57,050 nt of DNA from Reclinomonas americana ATCC 50394 (GCA_048213135.1 PS015031.1:6114-63163); one strand, 5' to 3'; positions 827 to 57,050 are shown, counted from the stretch's first letter. The notes: generated from the letters alone by a model not told the origin. Program-made: numbers and translations.

Positions 827-1416
827 TCACTCACTCANNNNNNNNNNNNNNNNNNNNCTCACTCACTCACTCACTCACTCACTCACTCACTCACTCACTC
901 ACTCACTCACTCACTCACTCACTCACTCACTCACTCACTCACTCACTCACTCACTCACTCACTCACTCACACACTCACACATTCACACACTCACTCACTC
1001 ACTCACTCACTCACTCACTCACTCACTCACACACACACTCACACTCACTCACACAACACACACACACACACTCACTCACTCACTCACTCACTCACTCACT
1101 CACTCACTCACTCACTCACTCACTCACTCCACGCACTCACTCACTCACTCCCTCACTCCCTCACTCACTCCCTTCCCTCCTCTCACACTCACTCTCCCTC
1201 TCTCACACACTCACCCTCTGGCAACAGTGGAGGGATGTAATCATCGGGCGCCGGGCACCACGGACTGTCGGGCAACTGCACACAGTAGCCCTCCGCAATC
1301 GCCTCGTGTCCATTGACGAGTCTCAGCACACCTCCTTGTGTAAACGAAGAGGACGCTGCTACTGTGGTGGCGGTGCAGAGAAGGGCAAGAAAGAGCGCAA
1401 GGAGGAGTGCACGCAT
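367..1416 (-). CDS. CLN5: CLN5-like secreted/lysosomal protein, 5' exons (gene continues off the left edge)
   Basis: Signal peptide MRALLLALFLALLC. Exons 1416-1215, 621-607, 532-519 and 451-367 splice to WCP..DYIPPLLPEDDQVEVYYMQAPLMESVLSDLLGDVDLYHTGIGFRSLL, matching the CLN5 pattern FCP..IP...DDIEVFRLQAP.WE..GDLLG....H.AIGFRS.L. Confidence 0.75.
790..1200. repeat. (CACT)n/(CA)n microsatellite in the first intron of the CLN5-like gene
   Basis: Direct tetranucleotide repeat visible, interrupted by a 20-N gap. Confidence 0.95.
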
Positions 1417-1671
1417 GGTGCTCTCTATTCAGCAGACGTGATATCAAGGTTTAGTTGATCGGAAGTTTGTCAACAATGCATGGAGGTGCGCTGACTTTGA
1501 GCAACTGAAACGACGATAACACTTCATTCCTGACGTCGCGATGTCTACGGTCATACGCAACCACAGCAATGCAATGCCTGGGTCTGTAGAGGTGACGATG
1601 AGAATGCGATTTTGTGCCATTGCCTTGACCAATAGCCAAACTCACCGTACCTTTTGCGATATTCTCCGTTA

Positions 1672-4600
1672 TCAGCACGTGGTGGCGAGGATCAGCGAGT
1701 TGTTGACGGCGGCGTAGCCACGGCCGCCGGAGGCGCTGAGCGCGACCGCCTCTACATCGTTGCCGGTAGGTCCGAATTCCACCAGCCACGTCTGACCGCC
1801 GTCATTGGAGCCGTACACGGCAGGCACAGACTTGTTGCACGCGATCACGCGCATGCCGTCTGCGCTGCTCGCTATTCCCGTCCAGTTCTTGTTGTCGAAC
1901 ATGGTCGGCGTCTGCTCCCAGATGGTGCCCGAGTCTCTCGAGAAGTAGATGTTGCTGTTATCAATCGAGGCAAAGAGGCGCACACCATCCGCACTCGACG
2001 CGCACGCAGTCCAGTTCTTATCTTGCCCCGTACGTTGCGTCATCGATGAGTTGAAGACGCCGGTGAAAATACGCCCGCTGGTGACCACGGTGATGAACTT
2101 GGAGCAATCCGAATTGCATGCAATGTCCATGTAGGCACGCGACGACGACCCAGGAGCTGTCGTCCAGGTGGTGCCAGAGTCGACCGACTGGAACACGTTT
2201 GAGGCGTTGCCAACGGCCAGCATTCGAGTGCCGTCCGCACTCATGGCGATTGCTGTGTAAGGCTGATTGGAGCCGGTGTTGCGAGCCGTCCACGTTGCAC
2301 CACTATTTGTCGTCACCCAAATGTTGCCACCGTTCACCACGGCAGCCATCACCGATCCGTCAGAATTCATGGCCACATCGGTATAACTCTTGTTGCCAGC
2401 TGCAGTATTCGCCTGCGCCCATGACACACCCGAGTCCAGTGACAGATACAATGTGCCTCCAGAGACACTGGCGAGAGCCTTGGTGCCGTCCTGACTCGTG
2501 GCCACCGACGTCCAAGCCTGTGAGCTGGCACGACCCGTCCACGTAATGGTCGGACAATCGGTGCGCGGTGGCGATGGCGCAGCAAAGATGGGGACCCAGG
2601 TCGATCCATCGCTCATTACTTGCAACGCGTAAAAGGGCCGAACTTCGCTCTCGTTCAGTCCACGTTTCAACTGGGATGCCACTGCCGACGTCACCAACAC
2701 GTTGAACAGACCGCCAGCATTCTGACCGATGCACGTGTTGACAACCATGTACGCTTTGCCAGACACACCCGCTGCTGTCGGCAGCGTCACCGTAATCGTC
2801 GTGCTCGTCGTTGGGAAACAGGAGGCCGGTCGAACGAGAAGAACATAGTCGGAGGAAGAGGCGGTGTAGCTGCCGCTCACTGAGCTCCACACGAGCGTGC
2901 TTCCAGGTGTTGACCACAGCGCCGTTGCGCCCGATGCTGTCAACACCTGACCAGTAGAGCCCACAGCCAATTCAGCGGATCGACCAGATGAGTTGCCAAG
3001 AAGAAGCGCACCCTGTGTCAGCGGTAAGGAGACACTGGCGCCTACGACAAGGCTACCGGCTGTGCTCAGACTGCCACCCGCCACGAGGCCGCCAGTGCTC
3101 ACTGAGCCGCCTTGCAGCGAACCCACCGTAGTGACGCTGCCACCGCTAATGATACCAGACGAACTAACGGACGCACCGCGCAGCGACCCAACGGTTGTCA
3201 CACTGCCGCCACTGATCAAGCCGCCAGAGCTCACCGAGCCACTCTCAAGAGTGCCCACCGTCGTCACACTGCCGCCACTGATCACACCAGACGAGCTTAT
3301 AGAACTGCCGCGTAGCGAACCCACTGTCGTCACACTGCCGCCACTGATCAAGCCACCAGAGCTCACCGAACCGCCTTGCAACGAACCCACAGTCGTCACA
3401 CTGTCGCCACTGATGACGCCACCAGAGCTCACCGACCCACCAAGCAGAGCACCACCAGTGCTCACCGAGCCGCCTTGCAAGGAACCCACAGTCGTCACAC
3501 TACCGCCACTGATCAAGCCGCCGGAGCTCACCGAGCCACTCTCAAGAGTGCCCACCGTCGTCACACTGCCGCCACTGATCACACCAGACGAGCTTATAGA
3601 ACTGCCGCGAAGCGAACCCACAGTCGTCACACTGCCGCCGCTGATCAAGCCACCAGAGCTCACAGAGCCGCCTTGCAACGAACCCACTGTCGTCACACTA
3701 CCGCCACTGATAACGCCACCAGAGCTCACCGACCCACCAAGCAGAGCACCACCAGTGCTCACCGAACCGCCTTGCAACGAACCCACAGTCGTCACACTAC
3801 CACCACTGATCACGCCACCAGTGCTCACCGATCCACCAAGCAGAGCACCACCAGTGCTCACCGAGCCGCCTTGCAACGAACCAACAGTTGTCACACTGCC
3901 GCCACTGATCAGGCCACCAGAGCTCACAGAGCCGCCTTGCAAGGAACCCACAGTCGTCACACTGCCGCCACTGATCACGCCACCAGTGCTCACCGATCCA
4001 CCAAGCAGAGCACCACCAGTGCTCACAGAGCCGCCTTGCAACGACCCCACAGTCGTCACACTGCCGCCACTGATCACGCCACCAGAGCTCACCGTGCCAC
4101 CTTGCAACGAACCAACAGTCGTAACACTACCGCCACTGATCACGCCACCAGAGCTCACCGAGCCACCCAACAACGCTCCACCAGTGCTCACAGAGCCGCC
4201 TTGCAACGAACCCACAGTCGTCACACTGCCGCCACTGATCACGCCACCAGAGCTCACCGATCCACCCTGCAGCGAACCCACAGTCGTCACACTGCCACCG
4301 CTGATCACACCAAATGTGCTGACTGAGCCTCCCTGTAATGTGCCCACCGTTGTCACACTGCCANNNNNNNNNNNNNNNNNNNNCCGCTGATCACACCGAA
4401 TGTGCTGACTGAGCTGCCCTCCAGTGTACCCACTGTCGTCACACTGCCGCCGCTGATCACACCGAATGTGCTGACTGAGCCGCTCTGCAACGAACCCACA
4501 GTCGTCACACTGCCGCCGCTGATCACACCAAATGTGCTGACTGAGCCGCTCTGTAATGAGCCCACCGTCGTCACACTGCCGCCGCTGATCACACCGAATG

Positions 4601-7600
4601 TGCTGACCGAGCTGCCCTGCAACGAACCTACCGTCGTCACACTGCCGCCGCTGATCACTCCGAATGTGCTGACTGAGCCGCTCTCCAGCGTGCCAACCGT
4701 CGTCACACTGCCGCCGCTGATTACACCGAATGTGCTGACCGAACTGCTCTGCAAGGAACCAACCGTCGTCACACTGCCGCCGCTGATCACACCAAAGGTG
4801 CTGACTGAGCCACTCTCAAGCATGCCCACTGTCGTCACACTGCCGCCGCTGATCACACCGAATGTGCTGACTGACCCACTCTCGAGCGTGCCAACAGTCG
4901 TCACACTGCCGCCACTGATCACACCAAATGTGCTGACTGAGCTGCCCTGCAATGTACCCACTGTCGTCACACTGCCGCCGCTAATCACACCAAAGGTGCT
5001 GACCGAGCCACTCTCGAGCGTGCCAACAGTCGTNNNNNNNNNNNNNNNNNNNNNNNNNNNNNNNNNNNNNNNNNNNNNNNNNNNNNNNNNNNNNNNNNNN
5101 NNNNNNNNNNNNNNNNNNNNNNNNNNNNNNGCTGATCACACCAAATGTGCTGACTGAGCCTCCCTGTAATGTGCCCACCGTTGTCACACTGCCACCGCTA
5201 ATCACGCCGAACGTGCTGACTGAGCCGCTCTCCAATGAACCCACTGTCGTCACGCTGCCGCCACTGATCACGCCGAACGTGCTGACTGAGCCACTCTCAA
5301 GCGTGCCCACTGTCGTCACACTGCCGCCGCTAATCACACCAAATGTGCTGACCGAGCTGCCCTGCAATGTGCCCACCGTCGTCACACTGCCGCCGCTGAT
5401 CACACCGAACGTGCTGACTGAGCCGCTCTGTAATGAGCCCACTGTCGTCACACTGCCGCCGCTGATCACACCGAATGTGCTGACTGAGCCGCTCTGTAAT
5501 GAGCCCACTGTCGTCACGCTGCCGCCGCTGATCACACCAAATGTGCTGACTGAGCCGCTCTCCAATGAACCCACCGTCGTCACGCTGCCGCCGCTGATCA
5601 CACCGAATGTGCTGACCGAGCTGCTCTCAAGCGTGCCCACTGTCGTCACACTGCCGCCGCTGATCACGCCGAACGTGCTGACAGAGCTGCTCTCCAGTGT
5701 GCCAACAGTCGTCACACTGCCGCCACTGATAAGACCATCAACAGCGAGAATTGAACTCGTTATACTGCCTGCAGAAAGTAATCCACTTGTAGTCAGACTG
5801 CCGCCACTGACGATGCCTACAGCACTGATGTTACTTGCAATGCCAAGGGTATTCGTCACAATAACTGCTGCACTAATAGACCCCGCAGTTGTGATGTTCG
5901 CAGCAACGAGAAGACCTGAAGTACTGACCGAGCCACTCTCCAGAGTGCCCACCGTAGTAACACTGCCGCCGCTGATCACACCGAATGTGCTGACTGAGCC
6001 ANNNNNNNNNNNNNNNNNNNNGCAATGAACCCACTGTCGTCACACTGCCGCCGCTGATCACACCGAACGTGCTGACTGAGCCACTCTCAAGCGTGCCCAC
6101 CGTCGTCACACTGCCACCGCTGATCACACCAAAGGTGCTGACTGAGCTGCCCTGCAATGTGCCCACCGTCGTCACACTGCCGCCGCTGATCACGCCGAAT
6201 GTGCTGACTGAGCCACTCTGCAATAAACCCACTGTCGTCACACTGCCACCGCTGATCACACCGAATGTGCTGACTGAGCCGCTCTCGAGCGTGCCCATCG
6301 TCGTCACACTGCCGCCGCTGATCACACCGAATGTGCTGACTGAGCTGCCCTGTAATGTGCCCACTGTCGTCACACTGCCACCGCTGATCACACCGAATGT
6401 ACTGACTGAGCCGCTCTCCAGCGTACCCACTGTCGTCACACTGCCGCCGCTAATCACACCAAATGTGCTGACCGAGCTGCCCTGCAGTGTGCCCACTGTC
6501 GTCACACTGCCGCCGCTGATCACACCGAATGTGCTGACCGAGCCGCTCTGCAACGAGCCCACTGTCGTCACACTGCCACCGCTGATCACACCAAAGGTGC
6601 TGACTGAGCCGCTCTCGAGCGTGCCCACTGTCGTCACACTGCCGCCGCTAATCACACCAAAGGTGCTGACTGAGCTGCCCTCCAGTGTACCCACCGTCGT
6701 CACACTGCCGCCGCTGATCACACCGAACGTGCTGACTGAGCCGCTCTGCAACGAACCCACCGTCGTCACACTGCCGCCGCTGATCACACCGAATGTGCTG
6801 ACCGAGCCACTCTCAAGCGTGCCAACAGTCGTCAAACTGCCGCCGCTGATCACACCGAATGTGCTGACCGAGCTGCTCTCTAGCGTGCCAACAGTCGTCA
6901 CACTGCCGCCGCTAATCACACCAAATGTGCTGACTGAGCTGCCCTGTAATGTGCCCACTGTCGTCACACTGCCACCGCTGATCACACCGAATGTGCTGAC
7001 TGAGCCGCTCTCGAGCGTGCCCATCGTCGTCACACTGCCGCCGCTGATCACACCGAATGTGCTGACCGAGCCGCTCTCGAGCGTGCCCATCGTCGTCACA
7101 CTGCCGCCGCTGATCACACCAAATGTGCTGACTGAGCCGCTTTGTAATGTGCCCACCGTCGTAACACTGCCGCCGCTGATCACACCGAATGTGCTGACTG
7201 AGCCGCTCTGCAATGTGCCCACTGTNNNNNNNNNNNNNNNNNNNNNNNNNNNNNNNNNNNNNNNNNNNNNNNNNNNNNNNNNNNNNNNNNNNNNNNNNNN
7301 NNNNNNNNNNNNNNNNNNNNNNNNNNNNNNNNNNNNNNNNNNNNNNNNNNNNNNNNNNNNNNNNNNNNNNNNNNNNNNNNNNNNNNNNNNNNNNGTGGCA
7401 CTGCTGACGTCGATGGCGGCGCTCGGCGTTGGCGGATACCTGTACTTGTCGCAAAAGCCGCTGAGCATTCCGAATGAGGACTTTTTGAGGACATTGGTTT
7501 ACAATCCGGCGAACCAGACGTGGCACTTGAGTGCAGCTGAGTTGACGTCGGAGCAGCAGGTGCGGGACAGAGCCATGGTGCAGGAGTTGCTGGATTCGCG

Positions 7601-9493
7601 AGTGCCCGACGCACTGGCTCGCGTCGACATGGTGACGGACTATGTGGCAGCCACGCGTGCTGTGTTGGATTATAGGATCGATACGCTGATGCAACATACA
7701 AACAGCACGATTACGGATGTTGTTGCATGGACCCTGTCGCTAACCAATGCACTTGCCGGTGTCGATGCCTCGACTACAGCAGGTACGTATCCATGAATTT
7801 GTCACCCCGTACATCGCGACGAGCTGCTCGGTGGACCTGATTGCTGACCATTTTGCGCAGGAATATCGTCGATAACAAACACGTTGCAATCTTTCGGCTT
7901 ACTGTCCGCAAGTCGGACAGTGACTGCGGGAGCAGTGACCGCAGTCGGCGTTGTGACCGGCGGGAGTTTGACAACGAGTGGAACACTGGAGGCGGCCACG
8001 ATCAGTACATCCGGACAAATGAGAGCTGCCGGCTTGATCAGCGGCGGCAGCGTGACAACTGTCGGCTCAGTGCAGAGCGGCTCAGTCAGCACATTCGGTG
8101 TGATCAGCGGCGGCAGTGTGACGACGGTGGGCACGCTGCAGAGCGGCTCAGTAAGCACATTCGGTGTAATCAGCGGTGGCAGTGTGACCNNNNNNNNNNN
8201 NNNNNNNNNNNNNNNNNNNNNNNNNNNNNNNNNNNNNNNNNNNNNNNNNNNNNNNNNNNNNNNNNNNNNNNNNNNNNNNNNNNNNNNNNNNNNNNNNNNN
8301 NNNNNNNNNNNNNNNNNNNNNNNNNNNNNNNNNNNNNNNNNNNNNNNNNNNNNNNNNNNNNNNNNNNNNNNNNNNNNNNNNNNNNNNNNNNNNNNNNNNN
8401 NNNNNNNNNNNNNNNNNNNNNNNNNNNNNNNNNNNNNNNNNNNNNNNNNNNNNNNNNNNNNNNNNNNNNNNNNNNNNNNNNNNNNNNNNNNNNNNNNNNN
8501 NNNNNNNNNNNNNNNNNNNNNNNNNNNNGATACCGCAATCCACAGCACAGTCAGCTGTCGCTTGGTCACTTGCGCTGCAGCGCGCTCGGCGCCTCCTCCA
8601 ACGTTGCGTAATCTCAAGTCTGCAATCGGCACCGACACAGCCGACTCCACCGACGCCGACGACGACGGCGAATGCTGCGGCTTGCTATCATCCACCTCCA
8701 CCAGCGCGTCGGCGTTCACAGGGTGAATTCGTTGCGCGTTGCTCAAGTCACCAATGGCGGGACTCGCCAGCTGCGGCGGAGAGGAGGTGAGCGAGTCTCA
8801 TTTGTCTAGTTTTCCCTCACCCATCCACCAACGCACCTCATCCGCTGGCGTGTTGACATTGTGGAAGAGCCGCGCGTTTGCTAACCTCCGAATCAACGAC
8901 ATGGCACGCGGGTGCTTTGGCGCGTTGATGTATCCACGCGGTTCCACTCGTCGTCCATCATCAGCATCCCCGTTATCATCATCATCATTGCCGCCGAAAT
9001 CAGCGTCAATGTGCGTCTGTGCATACACACAGGCACCCCCCATGTGAGACACCTATCCACACACACAGAGAGGGAGAGAGGGAGCAGGTGGACGCACCAC
9101 TCTGTCACCAAACACTCCCATTGCACGTTCGTTGTTGACCGACATCATGTGCGGCGGTGGTGGCGCTGCTGGCAGTGGTGGTAACCGCAACCGCCCTTGC
9201 ACTAGTGTGCGCAACAGTCGCCGCGACACTGCCTGCTGTTGCTGTTGTTGCTGCTGTGAGGGCGAAGAGTCATCTGCGTGTTTGTTGGCGGCCATGTCGG
9301 TCTGTTGTGTCGGCGACTGCTGTTGCAGTGATCGCGGCGGCTGTAGACGATGAAACAGCTGCGGCGAGGGACCGGCTGGGCGCTCAATGAGAGCAGCGGG
9401 CGCGGGAGGCGCGCTTGGCATGTGTGGGATTTGTCGTGACAAGGGCACGAAGCCGGTTGGCTGTTGTTGTTGTTGCGGGTCCTGTCCTTGCAT
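1672..9493 (-). CDS. Giant (about 2,300+ aa) type II single-pass membrane protein: Q/P-rich cytosolic N-terminus, TM helix, helical neck, 22-aa Gly/Ser/Thr/Val repeat shaft, phage-tail-fibre-like domain, C-terminal beta-propeller
   Basis: Exons 9493-9098, 9016-8837, 8770-8529 (GT-AG, phase 0), then the flipped contig 7395-7782 + 7861-8189 (GT-AG intron), then 7225-1672. The joins read LWIAVS|VALLTSMAALGVGGYLYL (one base missing at the gap) and SGGSVT|TVGTLQ (exact and in frame). Stop TGA at 1674-1672. Confidence 0.8.
3050..8189. repeat. Coding tandem array with a 66-bp (2 x 33-bp) unit encoding GGSVTTVG(T/S)L(Q/E)SGSVSTFGVIS and variants
   Basis: Unit visible in DNA (gtcgtcacactgccgccgctgatcacaccgaatgtgctgactgagcc) with variation mostly at synonymous positions of the minus-strand frame; interrupted by gaps and by the non-repetitive part of the flipped contig. 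Confidence 0.95.
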
Positions 9494-11241: not shown

Positions 11242-11483
11242 ATGAGTGAGGAGGTGCAGAGGTATCGCAGTGCAGTGGAGCAGTTTACAGAGGTGAGTGC
11301 TTGTGTAAGTGAGAGGCGGGGAGAGAGACTGGGGAAAAAACAGTGAGATTTTTTTATGAGTGCTGCTTTTCTTTTGTGTTTAGGTGGAGGTGTAAGTGTG
11401 CTTAGGTGGGGTTCAGGTGCGGGTGAAGGCGGTGTGTGAGTGAGCGAAGAGTCGGAGAAATTCAAGTGTGAAATGAGATGATT

Positions 11484-11571
<88 letters not shown>

Positions 11572-14500
11572 GNNNNNNNNNNNNNNNNNNNNGAGAGGGA
11601 GAGGGAGAGGGAGGGAGGGAGGGAGGGAGGGGGGCCAAGGGAGTCAAAAGGCAACGACATAGGGAGAGAGAAAGGAAGACAGAGGGAGAGGATGATGACA
11701 GAAAAAGAGACAGTGAATACGTGAAGACACATACAATGTACAACGCACGATGACGGAGAGACAGACAATGCGAAGAGGAAAGGGAAGGAGAGACAGAGAA
11801 ATAGAATGATACAGACACGGAGTGGGAGAGAATGCAAACAAGCGAGGCATAAGGAGTAAAGTGGGGAGCACAAAATGAGACAGAGGCACAATAGGAAAAT
11901 AGAATGTAAGAGAAGAGGTGAAGGTGGAAGTGGGAGAACCTGGTGACCGCAGAGAGAAAGACAGCATACAGGCAGGCAAGCAGGCGAGTGAAGAACGGAT
12001 GATGAAAAACACACAAGGATGAGGCAGAGCAACTGCGTGACGGAGAGAGTGAGCCCCGCCTCACCGATATGATTCCGCGGTATCTCCAGCGTATGAATCG
12101 TATTATTATGCAATAGCGGCTTCACCAGACACTCCATGCCGACCTTGCTCAGCGGCCCGCCCACAGATCCACCATACGCGAACACCTCGAATCCGCCAAT
12201 CTCCCTCTGCTGCTGCTGTTCGTGCAGATCATCATCATCGTCATCATCGTCTTGATCGCCCTGCTCCTCGTCCTCCGCCGCCGCACTGGCTGCCATGGCA
12301 TGCGTCTCCAGCAGCTCGAGGATGCCGCGCATCGGCCGTTCGCGGAGGGTCACACATGCGCTCTTGTAGAGCTGTGGGAGTGAGGAGATGAGGGAAAGGG
12401 CGAGTGAGTGAGGAAGAGACTCTGGGAAGGGCGAGTGAGTGACAAAAAAGAGAGCGTGGGAGGAAAAGAGTTGAAGTCACAGATAAGGAAAGAGTGAGAG
12501 AAGGAAGAGAGCGTGAGGAAGCGAGTAAGGAAGTGAGGGCGAGGGAAGGGTGATTGTGGGAAGAGCGAGAGAAGGCAAGGAGTGCGAGGAAGGAGTGAGG
12601 GAAGAGTGAGAGAAGGAAGGGATGGCGAGGCATGGATTGGAGAGAGGAACACAAGAATGAGTGACACGGGAGTGACAGAGAGAGAAGTGAGAATGAACGC
12701 CTGGCGAAGGAGCGAGAGTGACAGAAAGAGAAGAGTGAATAAGGACGGAGGGAGGGAGAACACGGATAAGGGAGCGACTGAGAAAGAGAAGAAAGTGGCG
12801 GAAGATTGAACGAAGAAACAGAGGAGAGAGACAGAGGAGAGGAGACGAGACAGAGGAGAAGAGAGACTCTGTTACACATCTCCTCCTTCCCCTCACTTCT
12901 CTCTGTCTGTCTCTCTCTCTCTCTCTCTCTNNNNNNNNNNNNNNNNNNNNCTCCTCTCCTCTCCTCTCCTCTCCTCTCCTCTCCTCTCCTCTCCTCTCCT
13001 CTCCTCTCCTCTCCTCCTCCTCCTCCTCCTCCTCCTCCTCCTCCTCCTCCTCCTCCTCCTCCTCCTCCTCCCTCTCCCTCTCCCTCTCCCTCTCCCTCTC
13101 CCTCTCCCTCTCCCTCTCTCCTTTGCCTTCTGACTCTTTTTGCCCCTCTCACGCCGCAGGCAACGAGGGCACGGTGGCACTCTGCACGGTTCTTCGCAGC
13201 AACACCACCATTGTCAACGTCAACATTGACAAAAACGACATTGGCGAGCGCGGTGGTATGCTGCTGGCTGCCACCCTGGAGCAGCACACGACGGGCCTGC
13301 GCATGTTGCGCGTCAGCCACAATCCGCTTGGTCGTGCCGCCTCGCGTGTGATCAACGCGGTCACGCGACACACGCAACTCACGCTGCTCGACATGACGGA
13401 GACTGGATTGGAGGCGGAGGATGCGCCATTTGTGTCGACGATTCTCGAGTTCTCGCGGACGCTTACGGTGCTCAGTTTGGCTAACAATCGTGTCGGCGAT
13501 CGCTTCATTGAGGGCATTGTCGACGGACTGGCGACGAATTCGACACTTGTTTCGCTCGGTACGTTGCGGGGCCGTGCATTTTTTGCTTATTACATTCAAG
13601 GGTCTCAATGATTTTTGGCGATCCTGTGCAGACCTCAGTGCCTGTGGCATCGGATATCACGGCGGGTCATTGCTGCGCGAGGCAATTGCCGCCAACCACT
13701 CGCTGCTGCGTTTGGATCTGGATTACAATCAACCAGGTATTCGAAAAGTAGCGATGACGACTATTCGTGTGGGTGTCTGACTATGACTTGCGACAGGCGG
13801 CAACAATGTGAAGAATATCCAGGCGTGCCTCGATCGCAACCAGCAGGACTACAAGGCGCGCACCGAGGCCGCGCGCATCAGGAGTGAGCGAGGGGTTTGT
13901 TATTGCTTCACTCAGTTATTCTCGACGTGAAGTGCCTCTCGACTCAGTCGCGTATGTTTCGACGCACAGCACGCCAGAACCGTGCACGAGCAGTTGCCAT
14001 CGTCACCGAGGACAGAGAGAATGCCGCCGGCCGAGGCTCCACCGCCCACTCGTCTCCCGCAGCCTGACATGCCGCAACTCTTGCCGACCCCTGCTTCCGT
14101 GGTGTCGCCGCGTTTCGTGCCGCTTCCGCTGGTGAATTCGTCCTCGGCTGCGTCCGGATCCTCTGGTCGCCGCAAGCCCACCGTCTCCATCGATCCCAAT
14201 GTGCACGACGAGGTGCCATCGCCCACCTTCAGCCACGTGGCGCCTGCCAGTGGTGCAGAGACGGCAGTGCGTCCGAGTGCGCCTTCGAGCGCTACGTTGT
14301 CGCCCAGCGATGCAGTGCAAGCGCTTGATCGAGAGCGCAGCAAGAACCGGCAGCGACAGCGTGAGCTCATCGGCGACCTCGCCTTCTCACCACCGGCCTC
14401 GCCACGCTCCGTGGTCACCCAACTCATTGCGGCCACTGCTGCGGCCGACACTGCTGCTGCAGCGACCGGTCGTGCCGCTGATTCACCGCTGCGGTCACCG

Positions 14501-19100: not shown

Positions 19101-21602
19101 ATGGTTCTCCCCTTGTTGCGTTCGCCAGACTTGCAGCCGCTCGTGCGCGCAACTTGCAAGCACGCTGTGTGTGTGTGTGTGTGTTGCTGATCAACCCTGC
19201 TGCAGCTTGCGAGGGCGCGTCTCGCAGGTGCATGACTGGCAGGAGCCGCCAGAGCAGGTGTTGGAGGACTTTGCGCACATGCTTCCGTATTGGCCAGGCC
19301 AGGCCCACGACAGTGTGGTCGTCGATAACGTGCCAGTCGTTGGCATGGAGCGCACGTGCGATGTCAACTTTGTGGGCGCCGATGGCAGCGAGGAGGTGTG
19401 CTTGGATTCTTCATGCAGTTTCCTTCGTCGCGCGCACTGGTTGATGTGGAGTATGTGCAGGTCCGACTGATGGCGCACAGGAGCGTGCTGCTACATCGAT
19501 GCTCTGATGTGGCACACAAGGAGGAGATGCAAGCACCGATTGGTGGGCGACAACAGCGCAGTGCTCCATCGTTTCATTGTTCACTCATGAGCTGCTGCAA
19601 GCAGTTCCTGGTCAGCGAGGTATCAACATTGAATGCCCGACAGAGTGTTTGGTAAGTGAACGCAACCCTCTCCCCGCCTTCACAGTGAACATCTAGCTTA
19701 TTCTCTTCTCTCTCTCTCTCTCTCTCTCCCTCTCTCCCTCTCTTCCCCCCCNNNNNNNNNNNNNNNNNNNNNNNNNNNNNNNNNNNNNNNNNNNNNNNNN
19801 NNNNNNNNNNNNNNNNNNNNNNNNNNNNNNNNNNNNNNNNNNNNNNNNNNNNNNNNNNNNNNNNNNNNNNNNNNNNNNNNNNNNNNNNNNNNNNNNNNNN
19901 NNNNNNNNNNNNNNNNNNNNNNNNNNNNNNNNNNNNNNNNNNNNNNNNNNNNNNNNNNNNNNNNNNNNNNNNNNNNNNNNNNNNNNNNNNNNNNNNNNNN
20001 NNNNNNNNNNNNNNNNNNNNNNNNNNNNNNNNNNNNNNNNNNNNNNNNNNNNNNNNNNNNNNNNNNNNNNNNNNNNNNNNNNNNNNNNNNNNNNNNNNNN
20101 NNNNNNNNNNNNNNNNNNNNNNNNNNNNNNNNNNNNNNNNNNNNNNNNNNNNNNNNNNNNNNNNNNNNNNNNNNNNNNNNNNNNNNNNNNNNNNNNNNNN
20201 NNNNNNNNNNNNNNNNNNNNNNNNNNNNNNNNCTCTCCTCCTCTTCCCCCGGTCCCCGTCCTCTCTCTCTCCCTCCTCTCTCTCTCCCTCTCTCTCTTTC
20301 TGGCCGTGATCGCAGCATGCCGTGGCACAGGGACTGCAGTTTGTCTACACCGGCTCCGTGTCGTGTCAACGAGAGCGCATGGTGCAGCTGATGTGCACCG
20401 CTGCCGAGTTGCACGTCGACTCGCTGGCTATTGCGTGCGCAACTGTAGTTTTGAACGACATCTCTCTCGAGTCCGTCATGTTCTGGCTGGTGTGTTCATG
20501 TCGTGTTGAAGCACATCTATATGCGTCTCCACCCGTCTCACTGCAAGCTCTCAGGACGGCTTATGCGTGGAAGATGTCGGTGACGTATACTTTCCGCGAC
20601 TGATGCGCGCGTGTATGGAAGTGGTGGAGTGGCGGACTGCCGAGGTGATGCAGAGCGACGCCTTTTTGCACGCGAGTACGGCAGCCGTGTGCCGCGTCTT
20701 GTCGCACGATGTCATGTCGGTGCAAGAGGAGCAACTGTGGGACGCAGTTGTTCGCTGGGGCTGGTGAGTGGCGAGTGATTGGAGAGATGAAGCGCTCTAG
20801 TTCTGACTAACTTGCTCGTTTCGCGTGCAGCGCGCGTGCGAACATCTCGTCCGCCACCACAGTGGCCAGCTGGACTGATGACGATCGTGCACGGTTGCGA
20901 CAGGAGCTTGAACAGCCGCTGTCTCACATTCGCCTGTTTCACATGCCACGCGAAAGGTGAGTACTAGTAAGGCGCAGATGATGGCGGCAAGAGCTTAGCT
21001 GACGCATTGCAACATGCAGAATTGCCGAAGTGCGCGACAGTCAGCTGATTGACTCGGGGCGACTTCAGCAGTGGCAGATGTACGTTGTCGATTCAAGATC
21101 GGTTGACCGCGGACTGGTGCCGCCGGCGCGCAGACCTCCAGTCGCGATCGTGCAGGAGACGGATATCGAAATCAGTATCGACATGGATGTCGGTGCTGTC
21201 AACTACACCAGCACGGTTCCGTGCCCCCGCTGGGATGTCAATCTCTACTACAACCTGCCCAGCAAGCGCAGTTGTTTTGACTCTTGCGGGTACTGCTGCG
21301 AAATGACGTGCCGCTGCGTGCTCTTCTGCGACTGTGGCAACCCGTGCCGCGACTGCTGCGACTGCAACGGGTGTTCCAAGTCGTGTGGAGACTGCTGCTG
21401 TGAGGGTTGTTGCTATCCGTGTGGGCGCGGCTGTGCGGTTCGCTCTCGACGGTGTGGGAGAGGCTGCGCTGCGTGTACTCGTAGTTGTTGCCAGGGTTCC
21501 GAGAGGTGCTGCTGTGATATCTGCTGTGTTTGCATTTACAACTGCTGCGAAGCGAGATTTTGGGACCACCACGATAGCGCTTGGTGCAGGTGTTGTAGTT
21601 AG
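19101..21602 (+). CDS. BTB/POZ-BACK protein with Cys-rich C-terminal tail (copy A)
   Basis: BTB motifs CDVNFVG..VRLMAHRSVL and LQFVYTG; BACK motifs FLHAS...VLSHDVMSVQEEQLWDAVVRW and LLSHIRLFHM; final exon about one third Cys in its distal part. Start codon uncertain (19036 or 19101). Confidence 0.8.
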
Positions 21603-22305: not shown

Positions 22306-23833
22306 TTACTTTTCACCGAATAACCCGACCAACACGAAGATAGCAATCAAGATGAGAAAGCCAATAACAATCCAAAAGTACTTGCAGAAAATACCGGTGT
22401 ACTTCAGGCAATGCGGCGAGCAGCTCCGGCAGCAGTCGCCTAAGTGCTCGCAGAATTCCTTCGTACAAGCACCACATTTCCCGCAACACTCCGCAGTGCA
22501 CTCGCAGCAGGCTTTGCAGCAATCACCCGTGCACTCACAGCAGCCTTTGCAACATTCGCCCGAGCAACGAAGGCAATTCTCACAGCACACACCAGTGCCA
22601 TGACCACATCTCCTGCAGCATTCGCTCGTACAGGCACCGCAGCCTCTGCAGCACTTCTTGGAACCCTGGCAACAACTACGAGTACACGCAGCGCAGCCTC
22701 TCCCACACCGTCGAGAGCGAACCGCACAGCCGCGCCCACACGGATAGCAACAACCCTCACAGCAGCAGTCTCCACACGACTTGGAACACCCGTTGCAGTC
22801 GCAGCAGTCGCGGCACGGGTTGCCACAGTCGCAGAAGAGCACGCAGCGGCACGTCATTTCGCAGCAGTACCCGCAAGAGTCAAAACAACTGCGCTTGCTG
22901 GGCAGGTTGTAGTAGAGATTGACATCCCAGCGGGGGCACGGAACCGTGCTGGTGTAGTTGACAGCACCGACATCCATGTCGATACTGATTTCGATATCCG
23001 TCTCCTGCACGATCGCGACTGGAGGTCTGCGCGCCGGCGGCACCAGTCCGCGGTCAACCGATCTTGAATCGACAACGTACACCTGCCACTGCTGAAGTCG
23101 CTCCGAGTCAATCAGCTGGCTGTCGCGCACTTCGGCGATTCTGCATGATATATGCAATGCGTCTGATGAGCTCTTGCCATCATCTGCACATTACGAGTAC
23201 TCACCTTTCGCGTGGCATGTGAAACAGGCGAATGTGAGACAGCGGCTGTTCAAGCTCCTGTCGCAACCGTGCACGATCGTCATCAGTCCAGCTGGCCACT
23301 GTGGTGGCGGACGAGATGTTCGCACGCGCGCTGCACGCGAAAGTCAGATCTAGAGCGCTTCATCTCTCCAATCACTCGCCGCTCACCAGCCCCAACGTAC
23401 GACCGCATCCCACAGTTGCTCCTCTTGCACCGACATGACATCGTGCGACAAGACGCGGCACACGGCTGCCGTACTCGCGTGCAAAAAGGCGTCGCTCTGC
23501 ATCACCTCGGCAGTCCGCCACTCCACCACTTCCATACACGCGCGCATCAGTCGCGGAAAGTATACGTCACCGACATCTTCCACGCATAAGCCGTCCTGAG
23601 AGCTTGCAGTGAGACGGGTGGAGACGCACATAGATGTGCTTCAACACGACATGAACACACCAGCCAGAACATGACGGACTCGGGAGAGATATCGTTCAAG
23701 ACTACAGTTGCGCACGCAATAGCCAGCGAGTCGACGTGCAACTCGGCAGCGGTGCACATCAGCTGCACCATGCGCTCTCGTTGACACGACACGGAGCCGG
23801 TGTAGACAAACTGCAGTCCCTGTGCCACGGCAT
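22306..23833 (-). CDS. BTB/POZ-BACK protein, inverted near-identical copy B with a longer Cys-rich tail and a C-terminal TM helix; 5' exons not visible
   Basis: Reverse complement of about 20293-21500 found at about 23856-22660; diverges after RSCCQGS and ends FWIVIGFLILIAIFVLVGLFGEK*. Confidence 0.8.
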
Positions 23834-25274: not shown

Positions 25275-28200
25275 TTAATATTCTTCCCCGACTGACAGCG
25301 GTCGACTCGAAGAAAGCATTGCAGTCTATTGCTGACTCTCCTCTCTCCCTCCCTCCCTCTCCCTCCCTCCCTCCCTCTCCCCCTCCCCCCACTCACCCGC
25401 TCGCACCCCATCCCCACTACTCGACTCCACACGGCGGCGGCTGGTCGGCGGCGCCTCCACCACCTCGCCATCTTCACCGTACTCCGGCGCGGCCCTCTTG
25501 GAGCCAGCAAACCGCTTGCTCACCCGCACCGGCGCATCCAGCTCATCATCGTCGGCATCGGCCACTGGCGCAGGTGCCGCTGCCACCGCCACGGCCACCA
25601 CCGGTGCAGACGCCACCTCCTCCTCCTCATCCTCCTCCACCCGCTCCTCCATCTCCTCCTCCTCCTCTGCCGGTGGCACATCCTCGTCCTCGGCCTCGCC
25701 TTCCTCGCCGGCATCGTCGGCGCGACTGTGTCTCCGCGACCCACTCATATCGTCGTCGGCCTCGCCCTCCTCCGCATCCTCACTGTGGCGGCGACGACCG
25801 CCACGCTTCGTCGACACATCATCAATCTCACCATCTTCGTCGACGCGCCTCGACGGACCCTCCGGCACCATCGTCTCCTCCTCCTCTTCTTCCTCGTTTG
25901 CGACACCCTCCTCGCCTTCCTCCTGCTCCACCACCTCGTCCTCTTCGGCCTCACCGTCCTCCGGGCGCACAGCATGCGCGCCTGCCGATTCGCCGTCGTC
26001 CATCTCCACATCGCCGTCGTCCTGTTCGTCCCCATCGGCCGCCTCCGAATCTGCAGCGCCGGCACCGTCGGCAGTCGCAGAAGCACCAGCAGCAGCGGCA
26101 GCGGCAGCGGCAGCAGCGGCAGCAGCAGCACCGGTAGCAGATGCGGATGCGGCAGCGGTGCCGGCAGTGGCTGCACCAGCAGCGGCCGGCTTGATGCCCA
26201 ACATGTGCGGAATCAGCTCGTCCGAGATGTCAATCTTGCTCGCCAGCAACAGCGGTTCCTCACGCTGAATGAGGCGAATGGCCTTCCACAGGAATGTCTG
26301 CGATGATTGGGGGGAGATGTGAGCGAGATGACATTTGAAGTAACCGCGAGCATGGAGACGCAACTCGATCCTTCGACAACTTCTCCTCGTCGGTCAAGTT
26401 CTCCTCCGGATCAAAGTCGGCACGCGTCTGCTCCAGGAAGTCGACGGCGTGGTGGTATGGCACGCGATCTGCATCCGACTGGGGAGAAGAAAAAGAATGC
26501 GAGTGAGCAGCGAACAGGATACATGGCTTGAGCGGGAGTAATGAGGGAAACGGATACAAAACAAGGGCAGCATTATGAAAGGGAAGTGGAAGGAGAACGT
26601 AAACACAACGCGGAATGCAGAGAGAAACTGGTGAATGTGTGATCTCCTCTCGTTCTTTCTCTCTTTCTTTGATTGCTTCTTTCTCTTTTCACTGCTCTGT
26701 TACTTGACTGTCTGTTCCCTCACACACTCACACACTTTCGCGCTCCTATATTGCGCTCGCAGTTAGTCTCTCTCTTCTTCTCGCTTGAATGCAGCTTGGC
26801 TCGACGTTTTTTCTCGCGCTTCCCTCTGTTGCACTCGCGTATTGGTTCTCTCTGTCTCTTTTCTCGCTTGAATACTTCTTTGCTTAATTTCCTCATCTCT
26901 TTCTCGCTCACCTATATTGCTCTCGCGTATAGTCTCGTCCTCGTTTGAATGCTGCTTGGCTTGCCTACTATTGTCTCTCTCTCTCACACGTTTTGCTTAC
27001 CTGTATTGCACTCTCGTCTGGTTGCTCTCATCTTTCCACTGAGAATTCTTCTCTTCCAATCACCGATCTGTTGCTTGACTCGCACACTCTTTCTCTCTCT
27101 CTTGCTCGCTCTTTCAGTTCCCAGATGTTCCCTTTTTCCAAGCCTTGTCCCGCACCATTCCCACCCCACTCAACAACCCTCGCAAATATCTTCTTCCTCA
27201 GCACCCCCAAACTCACCAGTTCCACATGCTGCTGCCACAACCGCGACAGCTGCGTGTTGCCCATCACAAGCCGCTCGGCCGGCAGCCGCGAAGGAAACGC
27301 CTCGCGCACGCTCACATTCGCCGGCAACGCCGCCGACGCATCGGAGGGCCGCTCAAACGCCACGCACTTGTTCAGCTTCCACGCCACCCAATAGTCCTCG
27401 CGCTCTAATATGCGCTCCACGTCGGCACGGAACGCCGCACCGTCGGGAACTGTGGCATCCAGCAAACGGAGTGCCTTCTCACGCAGTTGTGCCAGTGTGT
27501 CGCCCTGCTCCGCGTTGAGAGTCGGCGCCTTGGGCCACTTGCTCGGACCGGCACGCAGATAATCGACAAGTGTCAACAGTTGCACCAGCTGCTGGCGACG
27601 GAAGGCGGGATCGCGCAATTGCAGGGCCAGCAGGCGCGGCGAGGTCAAGTACTTGGGCGAGAAGAAGGACGTATCGGTGCCGTCGTGCGCATCACTCGCC
27701 GACGGCTGCAACTGACGGTGCGACGCCATGACCTCCATGACACGACTGCAGCCCTTGGCAAAGTTGTCGAATCCACCAGCTGCGGCACCGCAAAAAAATG
27801 GTCAAACAGCGAAGAGATTGTGTGTGCGCCTGTGTGAGCGTCGACATTACCAGCAGTAAAGAACTTGTTGGGGTCGCTGTAGAATTGCTGCAGGGTCCAC
27901 AGCGTGCGATACAACGTGTAGTCGATGTGCGTGTCACTGTCGTCGACATCGAGCGCAGCGTCGAGGCCGTCGGCGGCCGCGACACTGCGCACCTGGGTCA
28001 CGTTGTCGGTGTTGAAGGCGCCGGCCAGGTTGACGCCGGCGCGCTCGGTGAGCGGAAACAGTTGCGAGGAGAAGAGGCGCACACGACCGCACGAGGCCGT
28101 GTCCTGTGTGCGTGACAGGCGCTCCAGAATCTCCTTGCAGAGCTGCCCGAGACGGGCCTTGTACCACACGTTGTGGAAGAGGTGCGGGTGCTGAGCGGAG

Positions 28201-28690
28201 GGATGAGAGGGGAAGAGAGAGAGGAGGGGGGAGGAGAGAGAGGCGCGCAACTGCAAACTCGGCAGCTCGTGTCTCCACACACTCAAACAGACGCATGCAG
28301 TCGGGCACAGCGTGCGCGGCAAACACATCCATGAGCACCCACAACACGAGAGACTCGTCACCCCACAGTGGTTCAGGTGACACGCTCGGCTCGGCGGGTG
28401 CACACATGGCCATGAGGACATCGATGAACGACGACAGCTGCTCGTTGGTGATGCCGGAGGGGCCGGAGAGTTTCTGGAGAGACAGAGAGAAAGGGAGAGA
28501 GAGAGAGTGAGTCAACAAGTGGATGCAAGCAGATCAGCATCCGGTTGCCTTTTTCACGCTCAACAAGCGCAGTCAGCGCATCACGTCGCTTTTTCTTCTC
28601 GCAGTGTGTAGACACGAAGACAGCGCTCGTTTAACAAGAAGTCTTCCTGATCTCGCTCCCTCCCTTCGCAATGTAGTCATCTCCAAGTCG
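25275..28690 (-). CDS. THOC1: THO complex subunit 1 (Hpr1) with a long acidic C-terminal tail
   Basis: Motifs LCKEILERLSRTQDT..CGRVRLF.SQLFPLTERAGVNLAGAFN.DNVT, DYTLYRTLWTLQQFYSDP, FFSPKYLTSPRLLALQLRDPAFRRQ.LVQ, ILEREDYWVAWKLNKC, MGNTQLSRLW. First and last exons uncertain. Confidence 0.92.
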
Positions 28691-33264: not shown

Positions 33265-34250
33265 TGCAGTCATATACGAGGACGAGCGTGACAAAGGATT
33301 CAAGGCTTCAAAGCAAGAGAGAGATACAGGTCTGCAGAGAGAGGTGAACGAATGCAGAGGTCACCAGAGAGAAGCTTACAGTGAGGAAGACTGCAGAAAA
33401 TTGCAGCTCTTTCTCATTCGTCGTTCTCGCTCATCCCAAGTCTGCACGCCTACCTCTCTCTCTCCTCTCTTCAATGACCTCTGCCAGCTTCTCGCTGCTC
33501 TCTCACTCTCTCTCTCTCTCTGCCAGCTTCTCGCTGCTTTCTCACTCTCTAACACAGTCTCTCTCTATGTCTCTCTATCTCTCTCATTGTTGCCTCCTCC
33601 TTTTGCAGTTCTTTCCCAAGCAGCAGCCTTCGCTCCCCGTCGCATTCTCGTGCAGACTCCAGTCTGCATACCTCTCTCCGCTGACCTATACAGCCGACCT
33701 CTCCATCACCTTGTCGCTTTTGCATGCCGTCCTCTCTTGCAACTCGGTCACTCTCGTTGTTGCCTCCACAACTGCTCATTCTCTTGAAGCCTTTATCGCC
33801 CTCGCCCTCGCCCTTGTCTGCTGCTGCTGCTGCTCTCTCTCATTCACTCACTCACTCTCATTCACTCACTCACTCACTCATAGTTGCCTCTTCCTTTCAC
33901 AAGCTGCAACTTTCAACCCATTGTCGCCCTCACCCTGGTCCTTATCTCTGTGCTTTTCATGCACTTCTCCCTCCCTTCTCCCTTTCCTTCCTTCACTTAC
34001 CCTCCAAGCACAATTGCACAAAGTTTCGACACGCCTTGGGCGCCTCCTTCGAGAACAACTCAATATCAATGTCTCCATAGCTCGTCTGCAACACAACTCG
34101 CCCTTTTGTCTGTCACACACACAAACATAAGAGACATGTCCATCTCCACCAGGCGCACTTGTCTCAAATGTGACGCGCGTGCGTGCATGTGTGTGCAAGA
34201 GAGAGCGTGCAGCACGCAACTAGAGGCTCGTTCACGTATACTTGTGACAT
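30109..34250 (-). CDS. CWC27: Spliceosome-associated cyclophilin CWC27
   Basis: [135 protein letters not shown]. Confidence 0.95.
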
Positions 34251-56880: not shown

Positions 56881-56940
56881 CTGCACATTCACAAAGACAA
56901 AGGTTCAGTGCCAAGTCTCTCTCAGTCTCCTCTTCCTCTC

Positions 56941-56974
<34 letters not shown>

Positions 56975-57050
56975 GTCGTCGTACGGTACGGACGTACGGT
57001 ACGGTACGTACGTACGACGGAGGAGGAGGACGGAACGGACGACGACGACG

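Follow-up and report, generated by a model that had tools for sequence, protein, structure and literature searches.

What is a phage-type fibre module doing in an intron-containing gene of a microbial eukaryote? The question is raised by positions 1672-9493 of a 57,050-nucleotide stretch of DNA (hereafter the window, that is, the whole stretch analysed), which appear to hold a long, intron-containing gene for a membrane-anchored surface fibre whose tip modules are otherwise those of phage tail fibres, giant viruses and bacterial fibres. The gene is most likely a horizontally acquired fibre tip joined to a host anchor, and we give a probability of roughly 0.6 to the overall reading, in which the acquired tip joined an anchor, a neck and a shaft peculiar to the lineage to make a trimeric recognition fibre.

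A predicted spliced gene on a gapped scaffold

Runs of N interrupt the scaffold of the window at 22 places, and five of these fall inside the gene (Table 1). The contigs of 1675-7225 have one open minus-strand frame each (896, 216, 290 and 401 aa), and their translation shows GSVSTFGVISGGSVTTVGTLES-type repeats throughout except in the last 462 aa. Contig 7395-8189 has its coding strand on the plus strand and, as given, finds no continuation upstream or downstream. We read it flipped because both ends then fit their neighbours: exon 3 reaches the gap as ..KRQLTVLWIAV and the flipped contig begins VALLTSMAALGVGGYLYLSQKP, which prolongs the hydrophobic stretch, while at its other end ..VISGGSVT is followed at 7225 by TVGTLQSGSVSTFG with the repeat register kept. 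With this contig flipped, a single minus-strand frame runs from 9493 to 1675 across three short GT-AG introns and the five gaps, and frame, splice signals and register agree with the gene of spliced exons that an earlier note on this DNA had proposed.

Table 1. Coordinates of the features of the candidate fibre gene, from 5' to 3' of the coding strand; introns, 5' exons and membrane segment are predicted.
Feature	Position	Strand	Remarks
Exon 1	9098..9493	-	ATG at 9493; Q/P-rich N-terminal (putatively cytosolic) tail
Intron 1	9017..9097	-	81 nt, GTGCGT..CAG, in-frame stop inside
Exon 2	8837..9016	-	acidic/basic, putatively cytosolic segment
Intron 2	8771..8836	-	66 nt, GTGCGT..CCGCAG, in-frame stop inside
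Exon 3	8529..8770	-	K-R-Q, then first hydrophobic residues LTVLWIAV (~8531-8554) up to gap
Gap in membrane segment	8190-8528		339 N; cuts membrane segment; flanking frames need missing bases
Exon 4	7395..7782	+ (mis-oriented contig)	rest of hydrophobic segment VALLTSMAALGVGGYLYL (7395-7448) and orphan neck
Intron 3	7783..7860	+ (mis-oriented contig)	78 nt, GTACGT..GCGCAG, two in-frame stops
Exon 5 start	7861..8189	+ (mis-oriented contig)	transition segment and first 22-aa repeats, end ..GGSVT
Shaft	3061..7225	-	~1,340 aa of 11/22/33-aa G-G-S-V-T/S-T-x-G-x-L-x repeats
Shaft interruptions	6002-6021, 5034-5130, 4364-4383; near 5715-5930		three gaps; irregular stretch
Phage-tail-fibre-type motif, single	2914..3015	-	QGALLLGNSSG..LAVGSTGQVLTASGATALW
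Beta-sandwich knob	2566..2898	-	YTASSSDY..TVTLPTAAGVSGKAY..VMSDGSTW
Seven-bladed Asp-box (BNR/Sortilin-Vps10/Ycf48-like) beta-propeller	1675..2553	-	stop codon 1672-1674
Assembly gaps inside gene	4364-4383, 5034-5130, 6002-6021, 7226-7394, 8190-8528		runs of N

We infer from the DNA itself that there are introns and 5' exons and that the gene is joined over two gaps. All three introns contain an in-frame stop, and an intron of comparable length (~70 nt, GTAATG..CCGCAG) lies in THOC1, a housekeeping gene elsewhere in the window; their lengths, all multiples of 3, count against the model. Exon 1, which matched no family in the Pfam scan, is probably coding as judged by frame and splice signals, and an in-frame ATG at 9646 offers an alternative start; with introns 1 and 2 removed, the predicted N-terminus is Q/P-rich and 272 aa long. 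The two sides of gap 8190-8528 are out of frame if directly abutted.

The predicted protein is single-pass, with its N-terminus inside (type II), and at least 2,300 aa long. This topology is a reading by eye, suggested by the K/R residues ahead of the hydrophobic stretch and by the lack of an N-terminal signal peptide, and one transmembrane helix is the minimum reading of a segment that is cut by a gap. The orphan neck would be about 110-130 aa long and had no homologue in a protein search ("longer" band) or in one metagenome scan. Homologues were found for none of the 5' exons, neck and shaft, so that their being coding and belonging together has no independent support.

The repeat shaft

The 11/22-aa repeats, first put at more than 1,300 aa, are indeed present and amount to ~1,450 aa in the sequenced DNA. 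Tandem Repeats Finder reported a 66-nt period, for example at 6030-7222 (18.1 copies, 86% matches). Compared in pairs, 51 repeat units differed on average by 0.188, 0.051 and 0.395 at codon positions 1, 2 and 3 (0.284, 0.081 and 0.444 when the 8 unit-anchoring codons were left out), a distribution that points to constrained coding sequence. The shaft had also been described as tail-fibre-like, a description for which the comparisons gave no support: hhalign gave it a probability of 0.2% against phage fibre repeats (P0126) and 0.05% against our knob alignment (A3), and the search found no viral relative of it. We likewise rejected its identification with the tandem GDLLxG..GQVLT repeats of phages, on these values and on the presence of only one copy of the phage unit, ahead of the knob.

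The motif and knob are a phage virion module

The knob and the G.GQVLT..W motif together are a phage virion module, and the motifs quoted in the earlier note were found as exact matches in the translation. Its attribution of them to tailed phages is upheld by phage contigs, PHROG families and PDB folds. At E<=1e-3 the knob family had 235 representatives. Among the best 150, 48 aligned over 110 or more of the 170 query residues, and 28 of these 48 have 135-164 aa after the knob. Seven of ten sampled relatives matched PHROG virion families, and the alignment of 26 knob rows matched 32 PHROG families; among the 25 listed, every named one is a tail fibre, tail, baseplate or virion structural protein. 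In that alignment the row for the window itself had no PHROG match, and the knob matched no Pfam model. Knob relatives were encoded by 343 of 455 IMG/VR pattern matches, and the window knob itself matched 34 of 81 loci at 24-39% identity (tblastn, E<1e-3), one of which (L009) also carries a major head protein, endonuclease VII and virion structural proteins.

The fold agrees with the homology. In the VIA search, the best PDB match was the tailspike of phage Solidus (gp83, Acinetobacter, 24qj; Z 11.8, rmsd 2.1 over 92 aa; Foldseek E 2.8e-6), followed by the Pseudomonas phage Pa223 capsid spike (9ny6, Z 9.4), the N-terminal domains of CBA120 TSP4 (7rej; two entries, 9.3 and 8.9), 6o38, whose title says no more than "chaperone-substrate complex" (8.8), and the baseplate of Klebsiella phage KP1 (9f4a, 8.3), and past the six best chains the scores drop to 6.7, 5.2 and 3.7. 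The C-terminal beta-sandwich domains of phage tailspike, tail-fibre and baseplate proteins resemble the knob with Z 8.3-11.8 and rmsd 2.1-2.8 over 92-97 aa. BFVD gave 221 fold matches at E<=1e-3; the 50 listed come mostly from uncultured Caudovirales and include EsV-1-124 and proteins of a Pithovirus (LCPAC103) and a Marseillevirus (LCMAC103).

The window knob has in common with the phage family whole-domain homology to proteins of phage contigs, the fold of solved phage virion domains, the GQVLT..W and TLPTA.G.sGK..SDG.NW motifs and a place ahead of a variable distal domain; a trimeric state, predicted by the model described below, may be a further common trait. Unlike the phage domains, it belongs to an intron-containing eukaryotic gene, behind a putative membrane anchor, has two insertions of its own with one cysteine each (CFPTT and TCIGQNAGG), and precedes a propeller, a pairing that was absent (no knob within 2 kb) from all 78 viral propeller loci that were retrieved.

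A seven-bladed Asp-box propeller

The last domain had been read as about six repeats of a BNR/sialidase-type propeller. The count is seven, both by the W-x-x-[VI]-A-x-S-x-D-G blades in the translation and by structure: AF2 pLDDT was mostly >90 over residues 170-462, and the top Foldseek matches were the seven-bladed Ycf48 (E 4e-14) and designed seven-bladed propellers. Ycf48, a photosystem II assembly factor, is a match at the level of fold only (15-16% identity). The BNR part of the assignment holds, with the Asp-box (S-x-D-x-G-x-T-W) motifs SLDSGVSW, SVDSGTTW, SRDSGTIW and SNDGGQTW plus a degenerate TNSGATW, and a match to PF15902 of 42.7 bits (cut-off 33, E 4.3e-11). The sialidase part does not: sialidase (GH33) propellers are six-bladed and typically have an R-I-P motif, which we did not see by eye in the translation, PF13088 was absent from the Pfam matches, and PF13859 reached 15.2 bits for a cut-off of 27.

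The "near" length band had 322 propeller relatives and the "longer" band had 199. The family is mostly bacterial, and it is also found on viral contigs, including giant-virus MAGs, at a comparable identity (~36-41%). These bacterial and giant-virus proteins align over the entire propeller and share the Asp-box motifs and seven blades; they have signal peptides of their own, collagen, Ig, DUF7151 or other stalks, and lack the window's shaft, neck and anchor. For the C-terminal 462 aa as a whole, the best metagenome match showed 43% identity on a short segment and 36-38% where the aligned segments were longer.

A predicted trimer

The suggestion that the protein is trimeric found support in a model that passed its controls, with a score of 0.71 against 0.01 for the best control, although a memory of solved phage trimers may explain the pass. 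Three runs agreed in at least 89% of contacts with a partner pLDDT of at least 75, and the model places the motif of 2914-3015 in inter-chain beta structure. In the calibration of the score mark, 21 of 30 proteins known as pairs attained it and none of 23 known as single chains did; that calibration was made with two copies, whereas the model has three.

Host setting and origin of the tip

The locus is a real nuclear gene of a GC-rich microbial eukaryote. GC3 is 0.60-0.73 in the fibre gene compared with 0.65-0.84 in its neighbours, and a Pfam scan of 20 ORFs of at least 150 aa across the window identified only ordinary eukaryotic families, namely THOC1, cyclophilin, class-V aminotransferase, BACK and DUSP. 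No capsid, packaging ATPase, integrase or polymerase was found in those ORFs (spliced or short genes could escape), as expected from the earlier view that this is not an intact provirus. The paralogue search called for by the earlier note, run with parts of the gene, found no orthologue or paralogue.

We believe that the C-terminal 460 aa would have arrived by horizontal transfer from a pool of modules common to phages, giant viruses and bacterial surface fibres, and would then have been fused with a lineage-specific anchor, neck and repeat shaft. The earlier note had been narrower, with the capture of a viral fibre gene, a reading that found partial support. Searches with the C-terminus led to phages for the knob and to mostly bacterial relatives for the propeller, whose best alignments were to a bacterial protein (171 bits, 40.7%) and a viral contig (160 bits, 38.5%). 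The propeller is equally close to both, and the donor may have been a virus or a bacterium.

A virus as the specific source (a giant virus, a polinton-like virus or virophage, or else a phage through one of these), with a virion fibre gene inserted in the nuclear genome and domesticated, is a possibility to which we give clearly less than even odds. Phage contigs commonly carry the knob family, whose fold extends to the three proteins named above from large DNA viruses of eukaryotes; members of the propeller family were found at 77 viral loci, including 9 on GVMAG-labelled contigs, at 29-42% identity; one giant-virus MAG encodes a collagen-plus-propeller protein of >3,000 aa; and protist-integrated polinton-like viruses are reported, in the available part of the account, to have large bacteriophage-like fibre proteins (PMC12220804). 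However, the propeller is as close to bacterial proteins, none of the 78 viral propeller loci retrieved pairs it with a knob, and the window query (P0001) had no match in 50,697 phage records or in PHROGs.

We hold it equally tentative that the tip came from a bacterium with phage-like surface fibres, comparable to the MAT fibres of Bdellovibrio, by a bacterium-to-eukaryote transfer followed by fusion. Among the listed propeller relatives, all rows that name an organism are bacterial (Verrucomicrobia, Desulfobacterales, Parcubacteria, Magnetomoraceae and others), a Parcubacteria protein has a GxLLxG..G motif upstream of its propeller, and a Chlorobiota MAG encodes a 2,519-aa protein containing the knob region. 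Six aligned bacterial or metagenome proteins (two bacterial-named) contain a small, related "W..VSG..TVTLP" domain that encloses the propeller, but there the propeller splits the small domain, whereas the window knob is contiguous and ahead of the propeller, and the nearest contiguous knobs are those of phage-like proteins. Besides, most relatives come from metagenome contigs, where the label "bacterial" is not established.

It is improbable that the model is a scaffolding chimera, with two or more genes or paralogues as the sources of the 5' exons, of the flipped contig and of the contigs with repeats and tip. There are five gaps and one wrongly oriented contig, the repeat contigs could be joined in any order and the 5' parts have no homologue; yet at the flipped contig the hydrophobic segment continues over one gap and the repeat register over the other, and the tip shares the uninterrupted contig 858-4363 with 434 aa of repeats and with host-type microsatellites. 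Least probable of all is that the locus is the fibre gene of a recognisable endogenous viral element and not a host gene, for while integrated polinton-like viruses typically carry large modular phage-like fibre genes (PMC12220804, in its available part), the window gene has three predicted short introns similar in length to that of the neighbouring host gene, a putative long cytosolic tail and membrane anchor, host-like GC3 and none of the viral hallmarks in the 20 ORFs, for which we rejected it as a polinton-like virus or virophage fibre gene and its knob as part of a virion.

Comparison with known surface fibres

In the preferred reading of an acquired tip on a host anchor, three chains would pair through the motif and knob, and probably the shaft too, and the fibre would then jut from the membrane with three propellers at its tip. 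By its architecture and by analogy, it may serve to recognise or adhere to a ligand on a surface, of which a glycan or the envelope of another cell (prey, substrate or partner) is the likeliest, and the proline-rich cytosolic tail would link the fibre to the inside of the cell. Class A scavenger receptors (SR-A/MARCO) begin with a cytosolic tail, cross the membrane once and continue through a spacer or neck into a long, trimeric stalk of repeats that ends in the C-terminal recognition domain. The type II layout that had been proposed on their model fits the window protein, as an analogy and not as homology: Pfam scans found neither collagen nor SRCR in it, so that we rejected membership of that class, and its stalk consists of beta-type repeats of Gly, Ser, Val and Thr.

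The polinton-like viruses integrated in protists are also described as having large, modular fibre proteins whose domains derive from phages (PMC12220804); like the genes for such proteins, the window gene is large and modular, with phage-type domains, in protist nuclear DNA. In the available part of that account the viral fibres have collagen, laminin G3, PTR, BppL_N and S74 domains and lie inside viral elements, whereas the window gene has no viral context and has predicted introns and a membrane anchor. The MAT (mosaic adhesive trimer) fibres of Bdellovibrio bacteriovorus are phage-tail-fibre-like trimers on the cell surface with swappable C-terminal binding tips (PMC10769870). As far as the available part of that source goes, they are bacterial, trimeric beta-helices with capping loops of the form V-G-G/N-pi-x-x-P-x-x-x-L, often with an S74 chaperone at the end, and the word "propeller" does not occur in it; the Pfam scan found no S74 domain (PF13884) in the window protein. 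The two systems would nevertheless be analogous, each being a cellular organism that shows phage-tail-fibre-like fibres on its surface.

Organization of the fibre gene

The draft scaffold has 22 N runs in the window, and every contig between 1675 and 7225 holds a single open frame on the minus strand (896, 216, 290 and 401 aa). The repeat frames consist of 22-aa units of the type GGSVTTVGTLQSGSVSTFGVIS, with a DNA period of 66 nt and, toward the 3' end, variants of 99, 132 and 165 nt in which an 11-aa sub-unit becomes visible; the last 462 aa (P0001, the tip) are free of repeats. The contig upstream of these frames codes on the opposite strand: it opens with VALLTSMAALGVGGYLYLSQKP and continues with about 110 non-repetitive residues, a putative 78-nt GTACGT..GCGCAG intron with two stops, and the first repeats. 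Farther 5', an ATG at 9493 starts a Q/P-rich frame that crosses two putative GTGCGT..CAG introns (81 and 66 nt, one stop in each) and reads ..TKRQLTVLWIAV just before the gap. The coordinates are collected in the table.

Features of the fibre gene and its surroundings in the window
Feature	Position	Strand	Remarks
Fibre gene	9493-1675	-	exons 1-3, flipped contig, shaft, tip
Q/P-rich frame	9493-8529	-	exons 1-3, ends at gap
Gap	8190-8528		
Contig read flipped	7395-8189		hydrophobic start, neck, first repeats
Irregular shaft stretch	~5715-5930	-	~70 aa
Tip (P0001)	3060-1675	-	462 aa
Stop codon	1672-1674	-	
Uninterrupted contig	858-4363		tip, 434 aa of repeats, microsatellites
Microsatellites	1-1316, 11380-11572, 33348-34127, elsewhere		(CT)n, (CTCA)n, (CA)n
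Cysteine-rich ORF	21003-21599	+	
Cysteine-rich ORF, longer copy	22309-23190	-	inverted, ~0.7 kb apart
THOC1 gene	27031-28511	-	at least two exons
Terminal open frame	56597-57049	-	runs off the window end

In the orientation given by the scaffold, the coding strand of the upstream contig finds no continuation at either end. Once it is flipped, its hydrophobic start extends the hydrophobic end of exon 3, and its final ..VISGGSVT falls in register with TVGTLQSGSVSTFG at 7225, so that both ends fit their neighbours, in keeping with the flipped reading of the earlier note. The frames on the two sides of the gap do not directly abut, and sequence must therefore be missing there. As to the single transmembrane helix proposed in the same note, a hydrophobic stretch is present on both sides of the gap, and one helix is the simplest reading of a segment called by eye. 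The THOC1 gene, whose intron measures about 70 nt (GTAATG..CCGCAG), provides a local standard of intron size, and by that standard the three introns proposed for the fibre gene are similarly short.

Pairwise comparison of 51 repeat units gave mean differences of 0.188, 0.051 and 0.395 for the first, second and third codon positions, and of 0.284, 0.081 and 0.444 when the eight codons that anchor the units were left out. This pattern shows that the repeats are old and under selection at the protein level, and it rules out an artefact of assembly or slippage. The 22-aa repeat is broken once, by an irregular Ala/Ile/Asn-rich stretch (..SGLLVAANITTAGSISAAVIVTNTLGIASNISAVG..) that may be a hinge or kink of the shaft.

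A phage-type knob in the tip

Neither PHROGs nor a set of 50,697 phage records contained a match to P0001, and the phage relatives of its knob (residues ~15-165) emerged only when HMMER was run exhaustively and a family alignment was used. Queried with residues 1-170 of P0001, the HMMER search retrieved 235 representatives at E<=1e-3, which were of two kinds: some carry many GDLLxG..RLxxGxxGQVLT..W units in tandem, and others (48 of the best 150) have a single unit and, after it, the complete knob. In the latter, the knob is either the end of the protein or precedes a further domain of about 150 aa; 28 of the 48 relatives covering most of the knob carry a further 135-164 aa after it. This stretch, which is conserved in many aligned relatives (P0160, P0201, P0203, P0247 and others in the family alignments A3 and A4) and ends in '..PITNWE', matched no Pfam family and seems to be a distal tip domain not yet characterised.

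Seven of 10 sampled members of the knob family matched PHROG virion families. The 26 rows of A3 matched 32 PHROG families and, among the 25 shown, those with a name were tail fibre, tail, baseplate or virion structural proteins; for the row of the window knob there was no PHROG match. Scanning IMG/VR with A4, which is smaller than the diverse A3, found 343 knob relatives in 455 pattern matches, and the window knob itself matched 34 of 81 loci compared with it, at 24-39% identity. One of these matched loci (L009) encodes a major head protein, endonuclease VII and virion structural proteins. In the ESM Atlas, the knob region was nearest to Uroviricota clusters (0.95, to be taken as a lead only).

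The structural comparisons point in the same direction. Folded with A3, the knob reached a mean pLDDT of 79.6, and 221 BFVD entries matched its fold at E<=1e-3; the 50 listed came mostly from uncultured Caudovirales and included EsV-1-124, one Pithovirus and one Marseillevirus protein. Against the PDB, the single Foldseek match at E<=1e-3 was the tailspike of Acinetobacter phage Solidus, while a Foldseek-independent search placed six chains on top (Z 11.8 to 8.3, followed by 6.7, 5.2 and 3.7) that are, by title, five phage virion proteins and one 'chaperone-substrate complex'. Three copies of the 170-aa piece were predicted to form a trimer with a score of 0.71 vs 0.01 for the best control, a pass that may owe something to solved phage trimers already known to the predictor. 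In the calibration, which used two copies and not three, 21 of 30 proteins solved as pairs attained the mark, as did none of 23 solved as single chains. Agreement of contacts between runs was at least 89%, with a partner pLDDT of at least 75, and the contacts of least error involved residues 14-49, the region of the GQVLT motif. With that reservation, the prediction is in line with the earlier suggestion of a probably trimeric protein. Compared with the phage knobs, the window knob has two insertions with one cysteine in each, which would fit an adaptation to an extracellular, oxidising setting.

A seven-bladed propeller

The remainder of the tip (residues ~170-462 of P0001) matched Pfam Sortilin-Vps10 with 42.7 bits (cut-off 33), was modelled by AF2 with a pLDDT >90 over most of the region, and had the seven-bladed Ycf48 as its closest PDB folds (E 4e-14). 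Its sequence presents seven W-x-x-[VI]-A-x-S-x-D-G blades with four clear Asp boxes, rather than the roughly six W-T-S-V-A-x-S-x-D-G repeats first counted. Of the BNR/sialidase-type propeller initially proposed, Pfam and the fold uphold the BNR type, and by the number of blades and the family match it is not a sialidase.

Relatives of the propeller were plentiful, with 322 in the 'near' and 199 in the 'longer' length band; among the 240 rows listed, all that bear an organism name were bacterial, and one came from a eukaryotic transcriptome resource. In IMG/VR, 164 of 227 pattern matches encoded propeller relatives, and nine of the 77 loci kept lay on contigs labelled GVMAG. Another giant-virus MAG, on its IMG/VR contig L001 (3-9071), has a single reading frame that exceeds 3,000 aa and is incomplete at either end. 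In it, collagen-like G-x-y runs take turns with several propellers of the seven-blade type ('SASGQYQTAV..SSNYGQSW') and with short 'AIGNQAG' repeats, and the product resembles a giant-virus fibre that bears multiple propeller heads.

Neck and shaft

For the neck (129-133 aa), searches of the protein collection ('longer' band) and of metagenome contigs found no homologue, the PDB gave no match below E 0.5, and Pfam, PHROGs and NCBIfam gave none. For the shaft, Pfam yielded only a sub-threshold match to Bflower_2 (18.3 bits, cut-off 38), no viral relative was found, and one weak match (31%) was from Anaerolineales; the ESM Atlas offered, at 0.88 or less and as leads only, a haemagglutinin repeat, a bactofilin and a gp37 region. 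The sole PDB matches were leucine-rich repeats that share the 22-aa period, with an alignment accuracy of 0.30, and were taken as an artefact of periodicity. When the shaft was compared with the phage repeat unit by hhalign profile comparison, the probabilities were 0.2% and 0.05%, and the description of the shaft as tail-fibre-like can therefore be kept as an analogy of form only.

Origin and possible role of the fibre

The order of domains in the tip differs from that of its relatives. A related small domain is split around the propeller in six bacterial or metagenome proteins that were aligned (two of them bear a bacterial name), whereas in the fibre gene the knob is whole and precedes the propeller. 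None of 78 viral propeller loci had a knob within 2 kb, and the metagenome contigs held no close orthologue of the 462-aa tip (identity peaked at 43% in a short segment and at 36-38% in longer ones). Within the collections searched, the combination of knob and propeller is peculiar to the fibre gene. We believe that the most economical explanation is that a fibre tip acquired by horizontal transfer became part of a host gene, fused to an anchor, a neck and a repeat stalk specific to the lineage. This tip would combine a phage-type trimerising motif and knob with a propeller drawn from a pool common to bacteria and viruses, and the gene would encode a surface fibre of type II topology that is probably trimeric.

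The earlier note had proposed the capture of a viral fibre gene. The phage-type knob is upheld and a horizontal transfer is likely, but a viral source is not preferred over a bacterial one. A viral route via polinton-like viruses integrated in protist genomes is plausible, since these bear large phage-like fibre genes according to PMC12220804. However, the evidence does not favour it over a bacterial route: with the same scoring, the best bacterial protein reached 171 bits (40.7%) vs 160 bits (38.5%) for the best viral locus, and the propeller scores therefore do not tell the donor. As for contamination, the presence of the tip, the repeats and host-type microsatellites on one uninterrupted contig, together with a GC3 (0.60-0.73 in the parts of the fibre gene) in or near the range of the neighbouring genes (0.65-0.84), rules it out.

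For a host gene with an acquired tip, we infer from the architecture a function in adhesion to, or recognition of, a surface ligand. The layout of the product has what we take to be a parallel in class A scavenger receptors. Phage-like fibre modules are known from phages, from bacterial surface fibres (MAT) and from viral elements in protist genomes. The Bdellovibrio MAT fibres are parallel in principle to the fibre gene (PMC10769870). The literature searched contained no account of an intron-bearing, membrane-anchored host gene that displays a phage-like fibre module. It is conceivable, although we give it only about one chance in four, that a free-living eukaryote uses a phage-type receptor-binding module (trimeric knob plus propeller) as the tip of its own membrane-anchored fibre and recognises cell envelopes in the viral or bacterial way, be it for the capture of bacteria, for adhesion or as a decoy against its own viruses. 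If true, eukaryotes would have an equivalent of the Bdellovibrio MAT fibres, with a tailed-phage fibre module serving as a cellular receptor. Expression as modelled would mean that eukaryotic cells can recruit viral receptor-binding domains as surface recognition devices; the gene would then be a clear example of horizontal transfer followed by domain fusion, complete with introns and with an anchor and cysteines newly added, and it would supply a recombinant knob-propeller trimer with a ligand open to direct testing.

Genomic setting

The 20 neighbouring ORFs include THOC1 (two exons), a cyclophilin, a class-V aminotransferase, BACK and DUSP, and viral hallmark genes were absent among them, in agreement with the earlier view that no intact provirus lies nearby. 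Two near-identical inverted ORFs encode a very cysteine-rich protein with CC/CxC runs, to which the longer copy adds a hydrophobic stretch at the C-terminus; neither matched a Pfam family. The frame at the end of the window, with a weak, sub-threshold Pfam match only, resembles a beta-rich extracellular repeat (..FSIAGGVHAALFTIVGGNQLTISL..VQVSDGTLTYTKQF..). Long microsatellites occupy much of the intergenic space and yield long spurious ORFs in several frames (SLSLSL, LTHSLTHS, RERERE).
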